From: a virus
Strand: one strand, 5' to 3'
Virus record (IMG/VR): IMGVR_UViG_3300023296_001674
Length of the DNA stretch: 25,260 nucleotides
The translations under genes and the position numbers were made by a program. Under the pieces are notes generated by a model. That model made no database searches. It was not told where the DNA came from and saw nothing but the letters and a program-made list of their open reading frames with translations. Shown in pieces: positions 3,395-24,368 of this stretch (its first letter is position 1; every line of letters begins with the position of its first letter).

Positions 3395-3464
3395 TATTGT
3401 ATGGTGTAGTGGTAACACGCTGCCTTTATCGGCGGAGCCGTGGGTTCGAGTCCTACTATGATAT
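3395..3464 (+). tRNA. tRNA-like element (AU-rich acceptor, D and T arms fold; anticodon loop irregular; no CCA), possible pseudogene
   Basis: Acceptor TATTGTA/TATGATA; D stem GTGT/ACAC; T arm GTGGG-TTCGAGT-CCTAC. Anticodon stem CTGCC/GGCGG leaves only a 6-nt loop. Confidence 0.3.
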
Positions 3465-6089: not shown

Positions 6090-6854
6090 TTAATCATTGT
6101 GTAGTTGCGTTTTTTCATATTCATCGACATCAAGTTTTAATTGTTTATATGTGATAGATGATGTATTACGTTTTTTTACATTATCTTTCTGAAGCATTAT
6201 TTCACAATTTAATGGATGTGTAATATAATATGGATCATACTTGTTAACAATTGATTCATTTATAGATATTTTATGATCCCTCGCTACACCGTTTGAATTT
6301 TTCTTTGGGACATACCAACCATGTTTTTTTATTAAATCTAAATTGAGTAGATTGGGATAATCATTGACATCAAATTTGAAATAATATGGACGTTTCGTAG
6401 TTTGAAGTTCTTTTGCTGTTCTACCATATTGTTCAACGCAGCATTGACATTTTGATATATACCGATCTTTGGCGGTGAAAAGTGTAATACAGGTGGAGCA
6501 AGTTCTAAACCATACCATGGAATATTCACCATCGATATATTTTTTTAGTTTATCCCATCTTTTTGGATAATGACCAATATCTTTTATGATTTTGATATGA
6601 CTTTTACTCATTCGTTCTTTAGTTTCATTGCTATGTTTGCGACGGCTATTATTATATTTGGCGGCACAAGATTGATTACAATATTTCTTTTTTATAAGTG
6701 CTTCATCGTATGACCATGATTTGCCGCATTGGTTGCATGTTTTTGGATTTTTATTATATTCGGCAATGCGATGGTTTTTTTGATTTATTTGCGTTTTTCG
6801 TGAAGCTATAAATCCTAATTTACCAGCTTCAGATTTGGACAATTTACATGTCAT
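6090..6854 (-). CDS. HNH-family homing-endonuclease-like protein with N-terminal Cys-rich (CxxC…CxxSC) motifs; paralog 1 of 4
   Basis: 254 aa. C-terminal block …GVARDHKISINESIVNKYDPYYITHPLNCEIMLQKDNVKK shared with ORFs 8344, 11473 and 14027. Embedded in the tRNA array. Confidence 0.75.
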   Translation of the reverse strand: MTCKLSKSEAGKLGFIASRKTQINQKNHRIAEYNKNPKTCNQCGKSWSYDEALIKKKYCNQSCAAKYNNSRRKHSNETKERMSKSHIKIIKDIGHYPKRWDKLKKYIDGEYSMVWFRTCSTCITLFTAKDRYISKCQCCVEQYGRTAKELQTTKRPYYFKFDVNDYPNLLNLDLIKKHGWYVPKKNSNGVARDHKISINESIVNKYDPYYITHPLNCEIMLQKDNVKKRNTSSITYKQLKLDVDEYEKTQLHND

Positions 6855-8286: not shown

Positions 8287-8362
8287 TTCAGATGACCAAG
8301 CAAGTGAACGGGACCGCCTGTTAAGCGGATATTGCAGGGAGCGTTACCCTGATCTGGAGCCA
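8287..8362 (+). tRNA. tRNA-Asn (anticodon GUU) with non-canonical T loop AGCGTTA; CCA encoded
   Basis: Acceptor TTCAGAT/ATCTGGA; anticodon stem (A)CCGC/GCGG(A), loop CTGTTAA; T stem CAGGG/CCCTG perfect but loop lacks TTC; weak D stem. Confidence 0.5.
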
Positions 8363-8991
8363 ATAACTTTATATTTTTTGTCCCATTCATTTATTCGATG
8401 GTATAAATCATATAATGATAAACTTGAATGACGATTTTTAGATGAATTTTCTGGCTGTGGCATTATCTTGCAGTTCGCTGGATGTGATATATGATTTGGG
8501 TCTATTTTGTTTACAAATCCATCATGTACACTATACATGTGATCTCTTGTTAATCCGTTTTTATTTTTGGTACTATGATACATGCCCTGTTGATGTATCA
8601 TTATAAAATCAAATTCTTCTGGAAATGTTTGAAATGAAAATATAAATTTACATTGTTCTTTATATTTTATCTTCTCAATCATGTATTCTTGTGGTGTCAC
8701 CCTCATGGCATTTGTGCAAGTAACTGCACAACTTCTTCCGCAATAATATTCACGAGTTCCGGTTATAGGGCTAAATTTATTATTACATGTTGGATTTTTA
8801 CACTCGATTAGTCGTTTTTGATATTTTGTTAAATTTTTTACCGATATTTCTTTTTTGGTGAATATGCAACTACATGTAATATGTGATATTTTACCGTTGC
8901 TTTTGCCATGCATACGTGAATGACCATTCAATGCCATTAAGGATTTAAATTGATTATCGCATATATTACATGTATAAATATCTTTAGACAT
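8344..8991 (-). CDS. HNH-family homing-endonuclease-like protein with N-terminal C2H2 zinc finger (CNICDNQFKSLMALNGHSRMH); paralog 2 of 4
   Basis: Start trimmed to the Met at 8989-8991, which has a strong SD (GGAGG 6 nt upstream on minus strand). The ORF-track extension to 9204 runs through the plus-strand tRNA at 9081-9166. C-terminal HNH block shared with paralogs. Confidence 0.75.
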   Translation of the reverse strand: MSKDIYTCNICDNQFKSLMALNGHSRMHGKSNGKISHITCSCIFTKKEISVKNLTKYQKRLIECKNPTCNNKFSPITGTREYYCGRSCAVTCTNAMRVTPQEYMIEKIKYKEQCKFIFSFQTFPEEFDFIMIHQQGMYHSTKNKNGLTRDHMYSVHDGFVNKIDPNHISHPANCKIMPQPENSSKNRHSSLSLYDLYHRINEWDKKYKVIGSRSG

Positions 8992-9080
8992 TATCAACCT
9001 CCATTGGTTGTTATAGTTTAGAAGATATGGGGAATTCCAGTTCTCTATATCTTCGTTAGTATTTATCAATAACATATTAT

Positions 9081-9166
9081 TCGGATATAGGAGAATTGGT
9101 AGACCCAGAAGATTGTTAATCTTCCGCAGCAATGCATTCCAGGTTCGAGTCCTGGTATCCGAGCCA
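9081..9166 (+). tRNA. class-II (long variable arm) tRNA with Leu-like D loop (GAATTGGTAGAC), G73 and anticodon GUU (Asn codons); CCA encoded
   Basis: Acceptor TCGGATA/TATCCGA perfect; anticodon stem GAAGA/TCTTC perfect, loop TTGTTAA; variable arm 14 nt (GCA-GCAA-TGC); T arm CCAGG-TTCGAGT-CCTGG; G73-CCA. Confidence 0.55.
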
Positions 9167-9215
9167 ATAACACCGTAGCGTAGAAAATAGTTACTTCGTT
9201 TCACTCACGACTGGA

Positions 9216-11228: not shown

Positions 11229-11498
11229 ATGGATAATAGTACATTAATAGCGTTAGGAAGTTTGTTGTTTGCCATGATTGGTGGATTTTGGGGTGTCATA
11301 ACATACATCCTTGGAATCATCAAGGTGGAAAACGTTGAACGTCGTGGTGTCCAAGAAAAATTATATATGCGCGATGATGTAGCCAAAGATGTAATGAACG
11401 AAAGTTTAACAGAAGTAAAAAGTACCATCCGTGATACGAATGATAGACTCATACGTGTAGAAACAATATTATATGAAAGAACTGATAGAACAAAATAA
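11229..11498 (+). CDS. small membrane protein (N-terminal TM helix plus charged coiled-coil tail), 89 aa
   Basis: Hydrophobic segment LIALGSLLFAMIGGFWGVITYILGII followed by a charged tail; overlaps the next gene start. Confidence 0.5.
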   Translation: MDNSTLIALGSLLFAMIGGFWGVITYILGIIKVENVERRGVQEKLYMRDDVAKDVMNESLTEVKSTIRDTNDRLIRVETILYERTDRTK

Positions 11499-12108
11499 AA
11501 TATGGTTTTTAAGCAAAACGGTAATACGTTGTATAAATAGTTATATGGTTGATTTAAGAAAGAGTTTGCAAACACCAAAAGTTTGCTGTATTGAATGTAA
11601 AACAATATTTAGAACTAATCATTTTGTTAGACACTCGAAGAAGCGATGTATTGAGTGGAAAAAGAAAAACGGCATGATCCCAAAAGGGAAGCGTGGCGGT
11701 TGGAATAAAGGATTAACGAAAATGACTAGTTCGTTGGTCAAAAAAGGAACCGATACTTATCGTCGCCGTTATGAAAATGGTGAATATACACGACGCACAC
11801 AAACCGATGATATAAAGAAACAATATTGGCAAGATTGTAAATTTAAATTCAATGTTTATAATTATCCTGAAATATTTGACTTAAATTTACTCGATAAATT
11901 TGGGTGGTATCATCCTGTAGAAAATCCAAGTGGCGTAAGTAGAGATCATATTATTTCTGTATCATATGGATGGAAAAATGGTATAGATTCGAATATTATT
12001 AATCATATAGCCAATTGTAAATTGATGATTCATTTAGAAAATAACAAAAAAAATAATCGATCTGATTTATTATTAGAAGAATTATTACAAAAAATACACT
12101 CTATGTAG
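11473..12108 (+). CDS. HNH-family homing-endonuclease-like protein with N-terminal Cys-rich motif (CCIECKT…H…H); paralog 3 of 4; TAG stop
   Basis: C-terminal block YWQDCKFKFNVYNYPEIFDLNLLDKFGWYHPVENPSGVSRDHIISVSYGWKNGIDSNIINHIANCKLMIHLENNKKN shared with the other three. Confidence 0.8.
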   Translation: MKELIEQNKIWFLSKTVIRCINSYMVDLRKSLQTPKVCCIECKTIFRTNHFVRHSKKRCIEWKKKNGMIPKGKRGGWNKGLTKMTSSLVKKGTDTYRRRYENGEYTRRTQTDDIKKQYWQDCKFKFNVYNYPEIFDLNLLDKFGWYHPVENPSGVSRDHIISVSYGWKNGIDSNIINHIANCKLMIHLENNKKNNRSDLLLEELLQKIHSM

Positions 12109-13562: not shown

Positions 13563-13757
13563 ATGAACAAGTATGACACGGCGTATAGAAATCGCATTGC
13601 TGCCCAACGCAAACAGTGGGCAAACAATACGAAACAGCGTTTGTGGAATAAACGAATAAAGATATTGTATATTGCATGTGTATGTATTATAATCTCTTTA
13701 TCGGTTGCGGCAGAAGTATTTGGATATTTAAATATAATATTTGGTTTTTTGTTGTAA
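13563..13757 (+). CDS. small membrane protein (64 aa; basic N-terminus, C-terminal TM helix)
   Basis: ORF; hydrophobic C-terminus ILYIACVCIIISLSVAAEVFGYLNIIFGFLL. Confidence 0.45.
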   Translation: MNKYDTAYRNRIAAQRKQWANNTKQRLWNKRIKILYIACVCIIISLSVAAEVFGYLNIIFGFLL

Positions 13758-13764
13758 CATGATA

Positions 13765-13843
13765 TTGACTAGTAGCTCAGTGGTTTAGAGCGGGGAGTTC
13801 TAAACTCTCGACAGCGTTGGTTCAAATCCAACCTGGTCAACCA
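13765..13843 (+). tRNA. putative amber-suppressor tRNA (anticodon CUA, reads UAG); CCA encoded
   Basis: Acceptor TGACTAG/CTGGTCA; D GCTC-AGTGGTTTA-GAGC; anticodon stem GGGAG/CTCTC, loop TTCTAAA (U33, C34-U35-A36, A37); 7-nt variable region; T arm GTTGG-TTCAAAT-CCAAC; A73-CCA. Confidence 0.6.
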
Positions 13844-13850
13844 ATACTAA

Positions 13851-14022
13851 GCGGGTATCGTATAATGGTATTATCGCAGCCTTCCATGTGATATGTTTAA
13901 CATATCTCAGGTTGAGCCATTTATTGGCTCCTTGAAGGTCGAGGGTTCAGACCCCATCCGGTTTAAGCCCGGTAGACCAACTTAAGCTGATGACGGGAGT
14001 TCGATTCTCCCTACCCGCTCCA
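13851..14022 (+). tRNA. tRNA-Gly (anticodon UCC) interrupted between positions 37 and 38 by a ~98-nt structured insert; same acceptor as the other Gly genes; CCA encoded
   Basis: 5' exon GCGGGTA-TC-GTAT…GCAGC-CTTCCA (13851-13886). 3' exon A-GCTGA-TGAC-GGGAG-TTCGATT-CTCCC-TACCCGC-T-CCA (13985-14022). First 18 nt identical to the tRNA at 12508. Confidence 0.55.
13887..13984 (+). other. intron-like insertion inside tRNA-Gly(UCC): four consecutive hairpins
   Basis: Hairpins: GATATG-TTTAA-CATATC; GAGCCA-TTTA-TTGGCTC; GGTC…GACC with a T-loop-like GGG-TTCAGAC-CCC; CCGG-TTTAAGC-CCGG. Too short for a canonical group I intron. Confidence 0.4.
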
Positions 14023-14026
14023 ATAT

Positions 14027-14818
14027 TTGATAAATAGTTATATGAAATGTAAACAATGTAAAATATCATTTACCCCTATCCCACAAGCAAAAAAAGGTAT
14101 ATTTTGTTCGCACGATTGTCATAATGTATACCAGCGCGTAAATACTCGTGAGCAATACTTAAAAAATCCCAAACGGTGTATTTTTTGTGATGATATAATA
14201 TCATATAGAGAAAATATAAAAGTGGCGAAGTTTTGCAATAGGTCTTGCGGGGCAAAATATAATAATAAAAGACGTACAGAATGCGGATACACCCCAAGTC
14301 ATAAAAAATGGTCTAGTGGTAAAATATCTGCTAAAATGTCATCAAAAATGCGCCGTGCGGATATCAAATCAAGTGTCGTGTTTGGTGATTTTACTATAAT
14401 AACATTTGCTATATGCAATATTACGAATAAACCATATGTTCTACAAACACCGCATGGTGGTATAAAGCAAATATCACCATATATTAAATCATCTAAACAG
14501 ATATATTATGAGCAAGCCAAATTTCGATTTAATGTATATGACTATCCAGATATATTTGATATAACACTTTTAGAAAAATATGGATGGTATACATGTCCCG
14601 GCAAGAAACGAAAAAATCAAAAAAAGAATATAAATGGTGTAAGTAGAGATCATATAATATCTATCAATGATGGATTTAAGAATGGGTATGATCCATATAT
14701 TTTAGCACATCCTGCTAATTGTCGATTGATTAAACAAGTGGATAATGTTAAAAAATTAGATAAATCTAATATGTCATATGACGAGTTATTGATTAACATA
14801 AAACAATGGAATGGATAG
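14027..14818 (+). CDS. HNH-family homing-endonuclease-like protein with N-terminal Cys-rich zinc-finger-like motifs; paralog 4 of 4; TAG stop
   Basis: N-terminus MKCKQCKISF…FCSHDCHNVYQ…FCNRSCGAKYNN. C-terminal block …NGVSRDHIISINDGFKNGYDPYILAHPANCRLIKQVDNVKK. Confidence 0.8.
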   Translation: MINSYMKCKQCKISFTPIPQAKKGIFCSHDCHNVYQRVNTREQYLKNPKRCIFCDDIISYRENIKVAKFCNRSCGAKYNNKRRTECGYTPSHKKWSSGKISAKMSSKMRRADIKSSVVFGDFTIITFAICNITNKPYVLQTPHGGIKQISPYIKSSKQIYYEQAKFRFNVYDYPDIFDITLLEKYGWYTCPGKKRKNQKKNINGVSRDHIISINDGFKNGYDPYILAHPANCRLIKQVDNVKKLDKSNMSYDELLINIKQWNG

Positions 14819-14825
14819 ACTATTC

Positions 14826-14900
14826 GCCCCTATAGTACAATGGTTAATATGATCGCCCGGTAAGCGATAGATGAAAGTTCGATTCTTTCTAGAGGCACCA
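14826..14900 (+). tRNA. tRNA-Thr (anticodon GGU; C at position 33), CCA encoded
   Basis: Acceptor GCCCCTA/TAGAGGC (one C·A mismatch); anticodon stem ATCGC/GCGAT perfect, loop CCGGTAA; T arm GAAAG-TTCGATT-CTTTC. Confidence 0.65.
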
Positions 14901-14912
14901 ATAAATAACAAT

Positions 14913-15728
14913 ATGACAATGACACCACCAAATATTATAATTTATAGTAATCCACGTTCAGGAACCACATTGCTTCATCATACATTATTATTATTTTTTC
15001 AAGAATATTATGGTGATTATTATTGTGATTTACATGAATTCTTTACAACATCGCATATGACAACGAGACATCGTAATAATATAGATGAAATAAATTCCAT
15101 TACGTATGAACAGAATAACAATATATTAATAAAGACATACAAGCCAGCAGATACCGAAAGCAATGACTTCGAAGAAGAATTGCAACAACGAATTTCACAA
15201 TGGAACAATTGTGTAATAGCTGATAACAATCAGCCGTTTATAACAAAAATATTTCACAAAAATTTGATTGATCACAATTTTTCAAATACAATATTTGATC
15301 ATTCATTAAATTTGGTTCTTGTAAGAAAAAACGTACAAGATATGATATTGAGTTTTATAATATCAAATAGCAACAATAACTGGTTTTATTATGAAAATGA
15401 AAATATAGAAACATTGCGCGGAAGTTTGATTGGTGATATAGATATAATACGCATTCATTTGGAACGCAATAAATTATTTCTTGAAAATATACCCAATATA
15501 CCCAATGCATTAATCATTGATTATGATGAACTTAATGACTATGAATATTTTTATCAAGTTATTATAGATATGGGCATTGTTGATATTCGTGAATTGCATG
15601 CCATGGAAATATTTGATAACATACAGCTAAAACGTAAAATTATTCCAACACCATATACAATGGATCGTATAGATTATTTTAAGAATGCCAATGAAATAAA
15701 AACACTCATGGATGAATATTGTTCTTGA
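14913..15728 (+). CDS. sulfotransferase-family-like protein (PAPS-binding 5'-PSB-like motif NPRSGTT)
   Basis: Start moved to the Met at 14913 (MTMTPPNIIIYSNPRSGTTLLHH…); the ORF-track start at 14871 overlaps the tRNA. TGA stop. Confidence 0.55.
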   Translation: MTMTPPNIIIYSNPRSGTTLLHHTLLLFFQEYYGDYYCDLHEFFTTSHMTTRHRNNIDEINSITYEQNNNILIKTYKPADTESNDFEEELQQRISQWNNCVIADNNQPFITKIFHKNLIDHNFSNTIFDHSLNLVLVRKNVQDMILSFIISNSNNNWFYYENENIETLRGSLIGDIDIIRIHLERNKLFLENIPNIPNALIIDYDELNDYEYFYQVIIDMGIVDIRELHAMEIFDNIQLKRKIIPTPYTMDRIDYFKNANEIKTLMDEYCS

Positions 15729-16799: not shown

Positions 16800-17129
16800 A
16801 TGGATAAAGCTGCGCTAAAAACACTTTCCGATACTCTTAATCGGATATGGGGAATCCCTGAACCAAGGGTCTATTATCCGAATAAACATTTCGAAAAACC
16901 TGAACCAGTTGAACAGACAATGTTCTCAGTGTTCATTCTTGACGCTGGTCCTAAACGGATTAACGTCATTAAAGAAATCAGATCAATCTTAGGATTGACC
17001 CTGAAAGAATCAAAGGATTTTGTTGATAATATAGACAAGAGCCTTGTTCAAGAAGACTTAGAAAAATGGGATGCAGATGCATTAGCCGAAACATTATCAA
17101 ATGTTGGAGCAACTGTTGAAGTTTCTTAA
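16800..17129 (+). CDS. ribosomal protein bL12 (L7/L12) C-terminal-domain homolog with a non-canonical N-terminus
   Basis: C-terminal 70 aa FSVFILDAGPKRINVIKEIRSILGLTLKESKDFVDNIDKSLVQEDLEKWDADALAETLSNVGATVEVS align by eye with bacterial bL12 CTD (FDVIL…KVAVIK.VR..TGLGLKEAKDLVE…EAG..VEVK). Confidence 0.65.
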   Translation: MDKAALKTLSDTLNRIWGIPEPRVYYPNKHFEKPEPVEQTMFSVFILDAGPKRINVIKEIRSILGLTLKESKDFVDNIDKSLVQEDLEKWDADALAETLSNVGATVEVS

Positions 17130-18079: not shown

Positions 18080-19063
18080 ATGGATAACAACAATTACAAC
18101 GATTTAAAACAGCGTTTGGTTAATGCAGGATGTTTCGAACGAGCGACATCGCATTATGTTCTACGTATTACAGCAATTCTAATTGCTTATGTGGGAGCAT
18201 ATTTTGTTCTGCTTACACAGCCACTAGGATTGGTTGCAGTGGGTGCATTGATTATTGCAGCCTTTGCCAGCGTTCAGGCTGGTTTCATTTCACACGATGC
18301 TGGTGATGGCGGTATTACATCAAATAAGATGCTATCTACCGGTATGCGACAATTCTTTTTATCGTTTGTTACTGGTGTGAGTAGTTCATATTTTCATGCA
18401 CTACATAAAGTGCATCACAAAACAATGTTTAAAGGATCATCGAAATCATCCGACACAGTTTCAGAAAATGAATACGAAGGCAAATGGTTGAAGAAATTAG
18501 TTTCACGTGATGGTTTGTTATTCATGGTAACGATGGTTACATTACGGGGATTCACATTCAAATTTGAAAGTGTAAAATATATGCTTAAACACGCCAATAA
18601 AACCGCCGCAGATCAACTGTTGGTGGGATTGCACGTTGTAGCATGGCTGATCGTTCCAATGATGATTATTGGACCAGTAGCCATTCTAAACTATGCATTA
18701 TTGACGTTGTTGATTGGACCTTATATCGGAACGGTATTGGTTATTAATCATGCCGGTATGGTAACAGCAAACCGACAAATGCATTTGCCTAAATTTGAAC
18801 GCGTAGTAAATACTACACGCAATCTTGGTGACGGCGTTTGGAACAATCTGTTCTTCGGTGGTGTAAACAACCATATTGAACACCATTTGTTTCCGGGTGT
18901 GCCAGTGCCAAATCTAGGTGAAGCTAGAAAGATTACTGAAGCCTTTTGTGAAGAACGTGGTATTAAATACACCAAAGCTTCATATTTCAGCGCATTAATC
19001 GAAGCCAAAGACCATTTCAAGGGTTTGTCTTCACAGAGATTAGTTGCTGAAGCACTCAACTAA
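18080..19063 (+). CDS. membrane fatty-acid desaturase-family protein (three His boxes)
   Basis: HDAGD, HKVHH and HIEHHLFP motifs plus multiple hydrophobic helices; SD TAGGAGA upstream. Confidence 0.8.
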   Translation: MDNNNYNDLKQRLVNAGCFERATSHYVLRITAILIAYVGAYFVLLTQPLGLVAVGALIIAAFASVQAGFISHDAGDGGITSNKMLSTGMRQFFLSFVTGVSSSYFHALHKVHHKTMFKGSSKSSDTVSENEYEGKWLKKLVSRDGLLFMVTMVTLRGFTFKFESVKYMLKHANKTAADQLLVGLHVVAWLIVPMMIIGPVAILNYALLTLLIGPYIGTVLVINHAGMVTANRQMHLPKFERVVNTTRNLGDGVWNNLFFGGVNNHIEHHLFPGVPVPNLGEARKITEAFCEERGIKYTKASYFSALIEAKDHFKGLSSQRLVAEALN

Positions 19064-20328: not shown

Positions 20329-20436
20329 TTCCAAGTAGCTCAGATGGTAGAGCGTCTGACTGTGGAACAGATGAGCCTAAAGCTTTGAAGTTCAAATTTA
20401 ATCAGAATGTCGGCGGTTCGATCCCGTCCTTGGAAG
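20329..20436 (+). tRNA. aberrant tRNA-like gene, 108 nt, no CCA: canonical 5' half and T arm separated by a ~39-nt insertion after the anticodon arm
   Basis: Acceptor TTCCAAG/CTTGGAA perfect; D GCTC-AGATGGTA-GAGC; anticodon-like stem TCTGA/(A)CAGA with loop CTGTGGA (GUG); insert contains TTGAA-G-TTCAA; T arm GGCGG-TTCGATC-CCGTC. Confidence 0.35.
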
Positions 20437-20575: not shown

Positions 20576-20667
20576 GCCTCGGTAGCTCAGAAAAGCAACG
20601 TAAGTTGTAGTGTAGTAGCAGGTGACTGAACCTCACCGTGTCGGTAGTTCGAATCTATCCTGGGGCA
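20576..20667 (+). tRNA. aberrant tRNA-like gene, 92 nt, no CCA: ~20 extra nt in the D region
   Basis: Acceptor GCCTCGG/CTGGGGC; 5' D stem GCTC with no partner; anticodon-like stem GGTGA/TCACC with loop CTGAACC (GAA); T arm GGTAG-TTCGAAT-CTATC. Confidence 0.35.
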
Positions 20668-23740: not shown

Positions 23741-24368
23741 ATGCTTAGAGGAACACGTTTGATGACTGGTGCGGAAGCATCTACATACACGAACACTGTT
23801 GACACACTACGGAGGTGTCTTCATCGATAATAATGTCGAAGAAGTTATAGTTCCGTCGTTATGGGAACAGCAGACATTTATTGATAAAGCAGGAAGTGAA
23901 ATTGTAAATCAGATGTGGGCATTTGAAGATAAGAAAAATCGCCCCGTATGTTTGATACCAGAAGTTACTGGTGTTATACAAGAAATGTGGCGCGATGATT
24001 GGAGTAAATCCAAACCAAAGCCATATTCTATTTTTTATGTGAATCGTTGTTATCGTTATGAACGACCACAGAAGGGTAGATATAGAGAATTCACACAAAT
24101 CGGATTAGAAATTCTTGGTGATACATCAGGGAATGATTACGATATGGCAATTAATTTATTGCAAAAGTGTCTCGATTGTTTTACTATAGATTATAAACTT
24201 ACAGAAACGGTACAACGCGGTTTGGCGTATTATGTTGATGATGGGTTTGAAGTCGAATGTGAGAAGTTGGGCGCACAGAAGCAAATTGCTGGTGGTGGTC
24301 GATACAATGAAGGTATTGGTTGGGCTATCGGCGTTGATAGATTAATATTGGGGATTGATGATGACTAG
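23741..24368 (+). CDS. miniaturised histidyl-tRNA-synthetase-like protein (class II motifs 2 and 3) requiring a +1 frameshift near 23804-23812, or a frameshifted pseudogene
   Basis: Frame A (ATG 23741, SD AAAGGAGAAAG) encodes MLRGTRLMTGAEASTYTNTVDTL (compare HisRS …[23 protein letters not shown]) and stops at 23828. Frame B (+1, open from 23769) encodes …YGGVF…MWAFEDKKNRPVCLIPEVTG…CYRYERPQKGRYREFTQIG…IAGGGRYNEGIGWAIGVDRL. No anticodon-binding domain. Confidence 0.55.

Follow-up and report, generated by a model that had tools for sequence, protein, structure and literature searches.

In phages, the presence of suppressor tRNAs correlates strongly with stop-codon recoding; in recoded phages the suppressors and other code-change genes are found in standard-code regions that precede the recoded late genes, with in-frame stops concentrated in late and lysis genes (bioRxiv 10.1101/2021.08.26.457843). 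CUA suppressor tRNAs have been reported in jumbo phages, a survey of which assigned about 96% to the standard code, found 0–0.65% recoded outside gut habitats, and found no recoding of TAA (PMC13037316). Phages that carry a suppressor tRNA and use the standard code have been proposed as precursors of recoding (bioRxiv 10.1101/2021.08.26.457843). Huge phages with CUA suppressors of their own are well documented, and what is new here is a novel megaphage lineage. In Escherichia coli, the laboratory amber suppressors (supE/glnV44 and CUA derivatives engineered from other tRNAs) are host tRNAs in which one change to the anticodon sufficed. Code-15 phages usually avoid TAG as a terminator.

The locus described here, in a 25,260-nt stretch of viral DNA the whole of which is referred to as the window, is a tRNA gene whose anticodon is CUA. 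Code-15 phages (Lak, crAss-like, and recoded jumbo phages) likewise have a canonical CUA tRNA (bioRxiv 10.1101/2021.08.26.457843; PMC13037316; PMC9523058). As in those phages, the gene lies where tRNA and translation genes abound and the standard code applies, in a very large genome of low GC content (36%). The expected mechanism is also shared, in that a host synthetase, probably GlnRS, would charge the tRNA, which would compete with release factor 1 (RF1) at UAG. Unlike in code-15 phages, no in-frame TAG was seen over ∼50 kb, where TAG commonly serves as a terminator and is conserved in that role. Nor is a code-change module (RF2 or synthetase) found nearby, and the body of the tRNA is not Gln-like. 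The lineage also differs in looking environmental and in having no match among GenBank phages or in IMG/VR.

An example from the Agate clade has a suppressor tRNA while its visible genes obey the standard code, as is the case here (bioRxiv 10.1101/2021.08.26.457843). That example differs in being a TGA suppressor from a gut phage for which recoded sister genomes are known; here, no relative is known to be recoded, and the region examined in one relative (L047) also follows the standard code. The gene resembles the laboratory amber suppressors of E. coli in having a CUA anticodon with U35, which is key to both GlnRS and LysRS; U1-A72 favors the former and A73 the latter. Unlike them, it is a phage gene without an identifiable parent with a sense anticodon (identity of at most 65% to window tRNAs and 79% to those of GenBank phages). 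If the tRNA is active, the phage would be among the largest environmental phages known with stop-codon suppression machinery, with no close sequenced relatives. It would also be a test case for a suppressor that arrives before recoding, while TAG is still a normal stop, or for recoding limited to late genes. If the tRNA is a mere by-product, a suppressor call alone does not amount to evidence of an alternative code, which matters when the genetic code is chosen automatically in viral metagenomics.

Structure and anticodon of the CUA tRNA gene

The gene and its anticodon are located as follows:

13766–13843, plus strand: tRNA gene of amber-suppressor type with anticodon CUA (ARAGORN, Rfam RF00005, register test)
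13800–13802, plus strand: anticodon C34-U35-A36 (ARAGORN, position 35; anticodon columns of the Rfam alignment)

This segment (TGACTAGTAGCTCAGTGGTTTAGAGCGGGGAGTTCTAAACTCTCGACAGCGTTGGTTCAAATCCAACCTGGTCAACCA) is almost certainly a real tRNA gene with a CUA anticodon. ARAGORN called a 78-nt tRNA with anticodon cta at its position 35, and the covariance model RF00005 matched from end to end (model positions 1–71) with a score of 57.1 bits, relative to a gathering score of 29, and an E value of 4e-10 for the whole window. No noncanonical pairs were flagged by Rfam, whose alignment assigns CUA to the anticodon columns at high posterior probability. The first-pass annotation had delimited the gene as 13765–13843; its end is upheld and its start is one base later. 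ARAGORN, the Rfam alignment, and the register test agree on an anticodon able to pair with UAG, as had been proposed.

Structurally, the tRNA lacks nothing expected of a working elongator tRNA. The acceptor stem (UGACUAG/CUGGUCA) begins with U1-A72 and has a single wobble pair, U5·G68. The D stem (GCUC/GAGC) closes a 9-nt D loop (AGUGGUUUA) that has G18-G19 and lacks A20. The anticodon stem has five base pairs (GGGAG/CUCUC) and a 7-nt loop, UUCUAAA, with U33 and A37, and the T arm (GUUGG-UUCAAAU-CCAAC) is followed by A73 and an encoded CCA. Sequence and fold bear out each of the cloverleaf details given in the first-pass annotation (D stem, T arm, anticodon loop, U33, A37, and A73-CCA). Nucleotides for tertiary contacts and processing are all present in UGACUAGUAGCUCAGUGGUUUAGAGCGGGGAGUUCUAAACUCUCGACAGCGUUGGUUCAAAUCCAACCUGGUCAACCA (U8, A14, G18-G19, U33, and a purine at 37, as well as G53, U54-U55-C56, A58, C61, and the 3′ CCA). 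The 6-nt variable loop is the sole unusual feature.

The reading frame of the anticodon loop was evaluated from full-cloverleaf energies. The CUA register has an energy of −21.9 kcal/mol with five standard anticodon-stem pairs. Shifting by −1 yields anticodon UCU at −19.3 kcal/mol, with an A·A mismatch and residue 26 missing, and shifting by +1 yields −18.9 kcal/mol with G·G and U·U mismatches. A shifted stem presenting a sense anticodon had been named as the alternative that could overturn the call; with folds worse by 2.6–3.0 kcal/mol and mismatched, it leaves CUA in place. Folded without constraints, the sequence does not adopt a cloverleaf at its energy minimum; this was given no weight because it is usual for unmodified tRNA sequences.

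Genome context and the tRNA array

The window belongs to a megaphage of ∼570 kb. Assemblies from Logan, ENA, and JGI include contigs (74 kb, 570,549 bp, and 570,750 bp) that encode proteins identical to those of the window, and the two larger contigs establish the size of the genome. The flanks of the window were covered by an upstream stretch (L046), at 254–275 kb of the 570,549-bp ENA contig (ERZ27315719, k141_202852; 254,312–274,953, reversed), and by a stretch that overlaps the window (L001). ARAGORN and Rfam called 27 and 26 tRNAs in the window, respectively, corresponding to about 30 distinct tRNAs, all on the plus strand. Genes for translation surround the array, including a full-length AspRS and a 199-aa HisRS-like core, and other flanking genes encode ClpX, a 2′-5′ RNA ligase, a thymidine kinase, a fatty-acid desaturase, and a sulfotransferase. 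Those with assigned positions are:

L046, 3772–5889: EF-G
L046, 16177–16692: IF3
Window, 14871–15728: sulfotransferase
Window, 16800–17129: ribosomal protein L7/L12
Window, 18080–19063: fatty-acid desaturase
L001, 16365–18179: AspRS

The block from EF-G to ClpX is syntenic in several uncultured relatives. The HisRS-like ORF (23769–24368), which adjoins the tRNA array, encodes a class II synthetase core of 199 aa with motif 2 (YRYERPQKGRYREF) and motif 3 (GGGRY...GWAIGVDRL), and without an insertion domain or an anticodon-binding domain.

The phage appears to belong to an environmental lineage without kinship to known phages. No close relatives were found among GenBank phages by megablast, and none were found in IMG/VR in searches with a 408-aa protein and the sulfotransferase. 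The best protein matches in cultured phages have identities of 43–49%, and uncultured syntenic relatives on ENA and Logan contigs have protein identities of 60–83%.

The CUA tRNA is closely flanked on both sides:

13563–13757, plus strand: 64-aa ORF (ORF list), ending 8 nt upstream of the CUA tRNA
13851–14022, plus strand: interrupted tRNA-Gly(UCC), 7 nt downstream of the CUA tRNA (Rfam, 38.9 bits with a 100-nt insertion)
14027–14818, plus strand: HNH-type endonuclease of the phrog_23051 family, ending in TAG (PHROG match, paralogue alignment)

Given the spacing of 7–8 nt and a strand common to the whole array, the CUA tRNA is probably cotranscribed and processed with its array neighbors. The 64-aa ORF, which has no homology to the ORF at the equivalent position in a relative (L038), is probably in the same transcription unit. 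A scan for sigma-70 promoters and terminators around the tRNA found sites no more numerous than in shuffled sequence.

Downstream, the interrupted tRNA-Gly and the adjacent HNH gene form a conserved cassette. The 98-nt insert (13886–13983) directly follows the anticodon, folds into multiple hairpins (−38.3 kcal/mol), and has no match among Rfam intron families. In other phage contigs (L038–L045; interrupted tRNA at 1203–1373 of L038), the insert is kept with compensatory changes in its hairpins and the HNH protein is 62% identical. One possibility is that the insert is a small intron of the tRNA, with the HNH protein as its free-standing homing endonuclease. Four paralogous genes of the phrog_23051 family are present in the window:

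14027–14818 and 11473–12108, plus strand: HNH-type genes
8344–9204 and 6090–6854, minus strand: HNH-type genes

No further paralogue from the 570-kb contig was among the protein-search matches listed, and a scan of JGI metagenomes with the family matched other phages only. Nearly all metagenomic homologues (L008–L036) are embedded in phage tRNA arrays, so that the family looks like one of homing endonucleases specialized for such arrays.

At least four aberrant tRNAs and the four homing-endonuclease genes suggest that the array turns over quickly. The canonical members, like the CUA tRNA, have an encoded CCA, which the degenerate members lack. Besides the interrupted tRNA-Gly, the tRNA at 3395–3464 is aberrant in that its anticodon loop is 6 nt long (UUUAUC) and CCA is not encoded. 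Another (20329–20436) has U1-A72, G73, and an insert of ∼35 nt in the anticodon loop, also without CCA. A third (20576–20667) is Phe(GAA)-like, with an insert of ∼20 nt in the D loop and no CCA. The tRNA-Asn at 9081–9166 is 86 nt long, with an unusually long variable region.

Exact and degenerate searches of IMG/VR and GTDB genomes found no orthologue of the CUA tRNA, and a pattern combining its anticodon loop and T arm matched only tRNA-Arg(UCU). There is thus no evidence of purifying selection on the gene. The contigs of three relatives end before the informative site. That of L047 stops at tRNA-Gly(GCC), just short of where an orthologue could be, and those of P0136 and P0145 stop before the tRNA array. 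In L038–L045, homology starts at the tRNA-Gly, meaning that the tRNA-Gly and HNH cassette is common to them and the upstream context is not. Among ∼235 unique tRNAs of comparable arrays in phages, a nonsense anticodon does not occur, which indicates that suppressor anticodons are not routine noise of such arrays.

TAG usage around the tRNA

In the DNA around the CUA tRNA, TAG is an ordinary and conserved terminator. Of the plus-strand ORFs in the window, 8 of 42 have it as their stop; the counts for the flanks are 4 of 27 genes in L046 and 4 of 35 in L001, a stretch that overlaps the window. The window and its flanks together span ∼50 kb, about 9% of the 570,549-bp contig; there, TAG terminates about 16 of 100 genes and is seen only in that role. 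TAG is therefore not depleted as a terminator, the pattern that the first-pass annotation had suggested looking for. IF3 (171 aa) has its TAG stop at the same position here and in the relative L047, and Pfam and PHROG domains in the window and flanks are intact under code 11.

Every called protein of L047, a syntenic relative with proteins 60–83% identical, was compared by tblastn with the ∼50 kb, as were the proteins of this genome with L047. Gene by gene over ∼20 kb, neither direction revealed an in-frame TAG or TGA. No in-frame TAG in a conserved gene was found over the ∼50 kb, and the Pfam lists for L046, L006, and L001 contain no RF2, GlnRS, or other code-change genes. The proposal that TAG is reassigned thus has no local sign in its favor, given the frequent TAG stops, the comparison with L047, and the conserved stop of IF3.

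Suppression at the local TAG codons would have small effects. The six TAG-ended ORFs on which the first-pass annotation based its prediction of C-terminally extended isoforms are all confirmed in the ORF list. The extensions themselves would be trivial. Readthrough adds 1–44 codons before the next stop, which does not differ from what would follow if TAA or TGA were read through; no ORF or domain downstream becomes fused, and the HisRS-like ORF gains only 8 residues.

Standard use of TAG near the tRNA is compatible with recoding elsewhere in the genome because the published model puts suppressors in standard-code regions. The frequent TAG stops and absence of RF2 nevertheless argue against it. 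Recoding of TAG confined to distant late genes of the 570-kb genome, in an environmental lineage with no relation to the Lak or crAss phages, is a possibility we regard as rather unlikely.

Function, origin, and alternative readings

The amino acid carried by the tRNA may be better indicated by its acceptor end than by its body. In blastn searches, the best annotated tRNA from GenBank phages is a tRNA-Lys(UUU) of a Pseudoalteromonas phage (79%), which has the same anticodon stem and T arm. The other nearest tRNAs are of CAU type (annotated as tRNA-Met when from phages, as tRNA-Ile when from E. coli prophages) and tRNA-Arg. The T arm is identical in phage tRNA-Arg(UCU) genes, in which the hexamer UUCUAA also occurs, displaced by one position. 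With identity to other window tRNAs of at most 65%, the CUA tRNA is not a recent copy of another member of the array. Its body is at most 48% identical to phage tRNA-Gln, relative to 65% for CAU-type and 60% for Arg tRNAs. Assignment of isotype by nearest neighbor among ∼190 phage tRNAs, with the anticodon masked, was set aside as indecisive, its leave-one-out accuracy being only ∼50%, and the low likeness to tRNA-Gln is accordingly weak evidence.

GlnRS recognizes a weak 1–72 pair, G2-C71, G10, and U35, and LysRS recognizes U35 and A73. U1-A72 occurs in 9 of 10 phage tRNA-Gln; in combination with A73, it occurs in 4 of 10 tRNA-Gln, in 0 of 10 tRNA-Lys, and rarely elsewhere. The CUA tRNA has the Gln-type features U1-A72 and G2-C71 at its acceptor end, plus G10. 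Since it also has C34, U35, and A37, and U1-A72 with A73 is the commonest signature among phage tRNA-Gln, glutamine would be the leading candidate, held with guarded confidence. Lysine, on the basis of U35 and A73, would be a less probable second, and any other amino acid less probable still.

We lean towards reading the gene as a genuine CUA tRNA of a megaphage tRNA array and translation island that is charged by the host and decodes UAG. The tRNA would be cotranscribed with the array, processed, and charged by a host synthetase, most likely GlnRS. Once charged, it would compete with release factor 1 for UAG codons and insert its amino acid there. Within the ∼50 kb, the predicted effect is limited to short C-terminal tails, and dedicated targets, if any, would be in-frame TAG codons in late or lysis genes elsewhere, as in the model for code-15 phages. 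The agreement of ARAGORN, Rfam, and the register test, the encoded CCA, and the signature of U1-A72 with A73 point to a UAG decoder. So does the context of a huge phage with translation genes, in which suppressor tRNAs are known, as do the association with recoding in the literature and the absence of CUA from ∼235 comparable array tRNAs. Against this are counted the lack of in-frame TAG in ∼50 kb, the share of TAG stops (∼16%), and the lack of a code-change gene. The lack of an orthologue, the fast turnover of the array, a body that is not Gln-like, and the rarity of recoding outside the gut weigh on the same side. On balance, the tRNA is tentatively favored as a functional decoder of UAG; that it serves in-frame TAG codons elsewhere in the genome is a more doubtful proposition.

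Alternatively, the tRNA could be a neutral or transient by-product of a fast-evolving, endonuclease-churned array, without dedicated in-frame targets. Point mutations or a one-base slide of the loop in an Arg(UCU)-, Lys-, or Ile2-like ancestor could have produced it, and it would be tolerated because suppression is weak and back-up stops are near each TAG. Consistent with such an origin, the gene is a singleton with no orthologue found in IMG/VR or GTDB, and phage tRNA-Arg(UCU) shares its T arm and, one position off, UUCUAA. The array itself has a 6-nt anticodon loop, anticodon-loop inserts of 35 nt and 98 nt, a 20-nt D-loop insert, and four HNH genes. Every local TAG is a terminator with the next in-frame stop 1–44 codons on, and standard-code phages with suppressor tRNAs are documented (bioRxiv 10.1101/2021.08.26.457843). 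In contrast to the degenerate members of the array, however, the CUA tRNA has a flawless cloverleaf, all conserved tertiary positions, and an encoded CCA. Its anticodon class is absent from the ∼235 other array tRNAs, suggesting that such variants are normally purged. We consider a by-product possible, though the less likely account, and retain the reading of a functional UAG decoder.

Two in-frame TAA codons upstream of the window (L046, 15589–15591 and 9956–9958; ∼1.2 and ∼6.8 kb upstream of window position 1), both present in two independent assemblies, raise the question of whether the tRNA reads UAA. One is in a TROVE/Ro60-like gene (L046, 13347–16137), right after a DxSGS motif and at a site aligned with Gln (CAG) in a relative. 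This stop was rejected as evidence of suppression because the codon is TAA and not TAG. The gene is also split by an insert of ∼1.1 kb between residues ∼240 and ∼239 of the protein in the relative; the insert carries a 317-aa ORF with a weak match to DUF7487. An Rfam search at the gene found no group I or II intron and no Y RNA family. The second TAA, aligned with Ser, is in a gene for a lysine-rich protein (345-aa family) whose ORF is uninterrupted in all 13 relatives, and an in-frame ATG follows 15 codons downstream. Both interrupted genes end in TAG here and in TAA in their L047 orthologues, an apparent coincidence. We read both cases as probable gene decay or fission because CUA misses UAA by standard pairing, TAA is the main stop, the TROVE gene has an insert, and an ATG is located downstream of the second TAA.

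A tRNA derived from Ile2(CAU), with C34 modified to lysidine by the TilS of the host, could in principle read UAA and rescue both genes. Lysidine-type tRNA-Ile2 has a CAU anticodon, C4-G69, C5-G68, and a 3–70 pair that is not C-G, and E. coli TilS requires C5-G68 (PMC1635315). The best E. coli matches of the CUA tRNA are lysidine-type tRNA-Ile(CAU) genes; A3-U70 and C4-G69, hallmarks of Ile2 (PMC1635315), are present, and G68 is kept in U5·G68. The likeness to tRNA-Ile2(CAU), including the phage copies labeled tRNA-Met, extends to nearly identical D and T arms and to A73, and a copy in the T4-like phage POP12 also has U1-A72. The two differ in the anticodon (CUA, two changes), in the 5–68 pair (U·G instead of the intact C-G), and in the anticodon stem and variable loop. 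E. coli tRNA-Ile2 given a CUA anticodon acts as an amber suppressor, which counts against ochre reading. Two conserved genes with TAA in both assemblies, ended by TAG here and TAA in the relative, fit a rescue; TAA, however, terminates about 65–78% of genes, insertion of an endonuclease ORF in the TROVE gene makes decay simpler, the ATG 15 codons beyond the second TAA fits fission, and no recoding of TAA is found in jumbo phages (PMC13037316). Ochre reading is thus very improbable relative to decoding of UAG.

Least probable of all, the loop could really be shifted by one base to UCU (Arg), or the gene could be a pyrrolysine tRNA, as suggested by UUCUAA and the identical T arm in phage tRNA-Arg(UCU) and by the ARAGORN label "tRNA-Pyl", which is merely its name for a CUA anticodon. 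A tRNA-Arg(UCU) was rejected on the energies and mismatches of the shifted registers, the residue 26 lost in the −1 shift, the columns of the covariance model, and the absence of A20, an identity element of ArgRS, from the D loop. The pylT tRNA has a short D loop without G18-G19, a 6-bp anticodon stem, a 3-nt variable loop, and no T-psi-C consensus. A tRNA-Pyl was rejected since the gene has no such atypical feature, with a 5-bp anticodon stem, GG in its 9-nt D loop, a standard T loop (UUCAAAU), and a 6-nt variable loop; no pyl genes are in the Pfam lists for the region (L046, L006, and L001). In an unrelated phage array (L016, 1968–2042, minus strand), ARAGORN called a tRNA with a four-base anticodon, "ctag", in an irregular loop.
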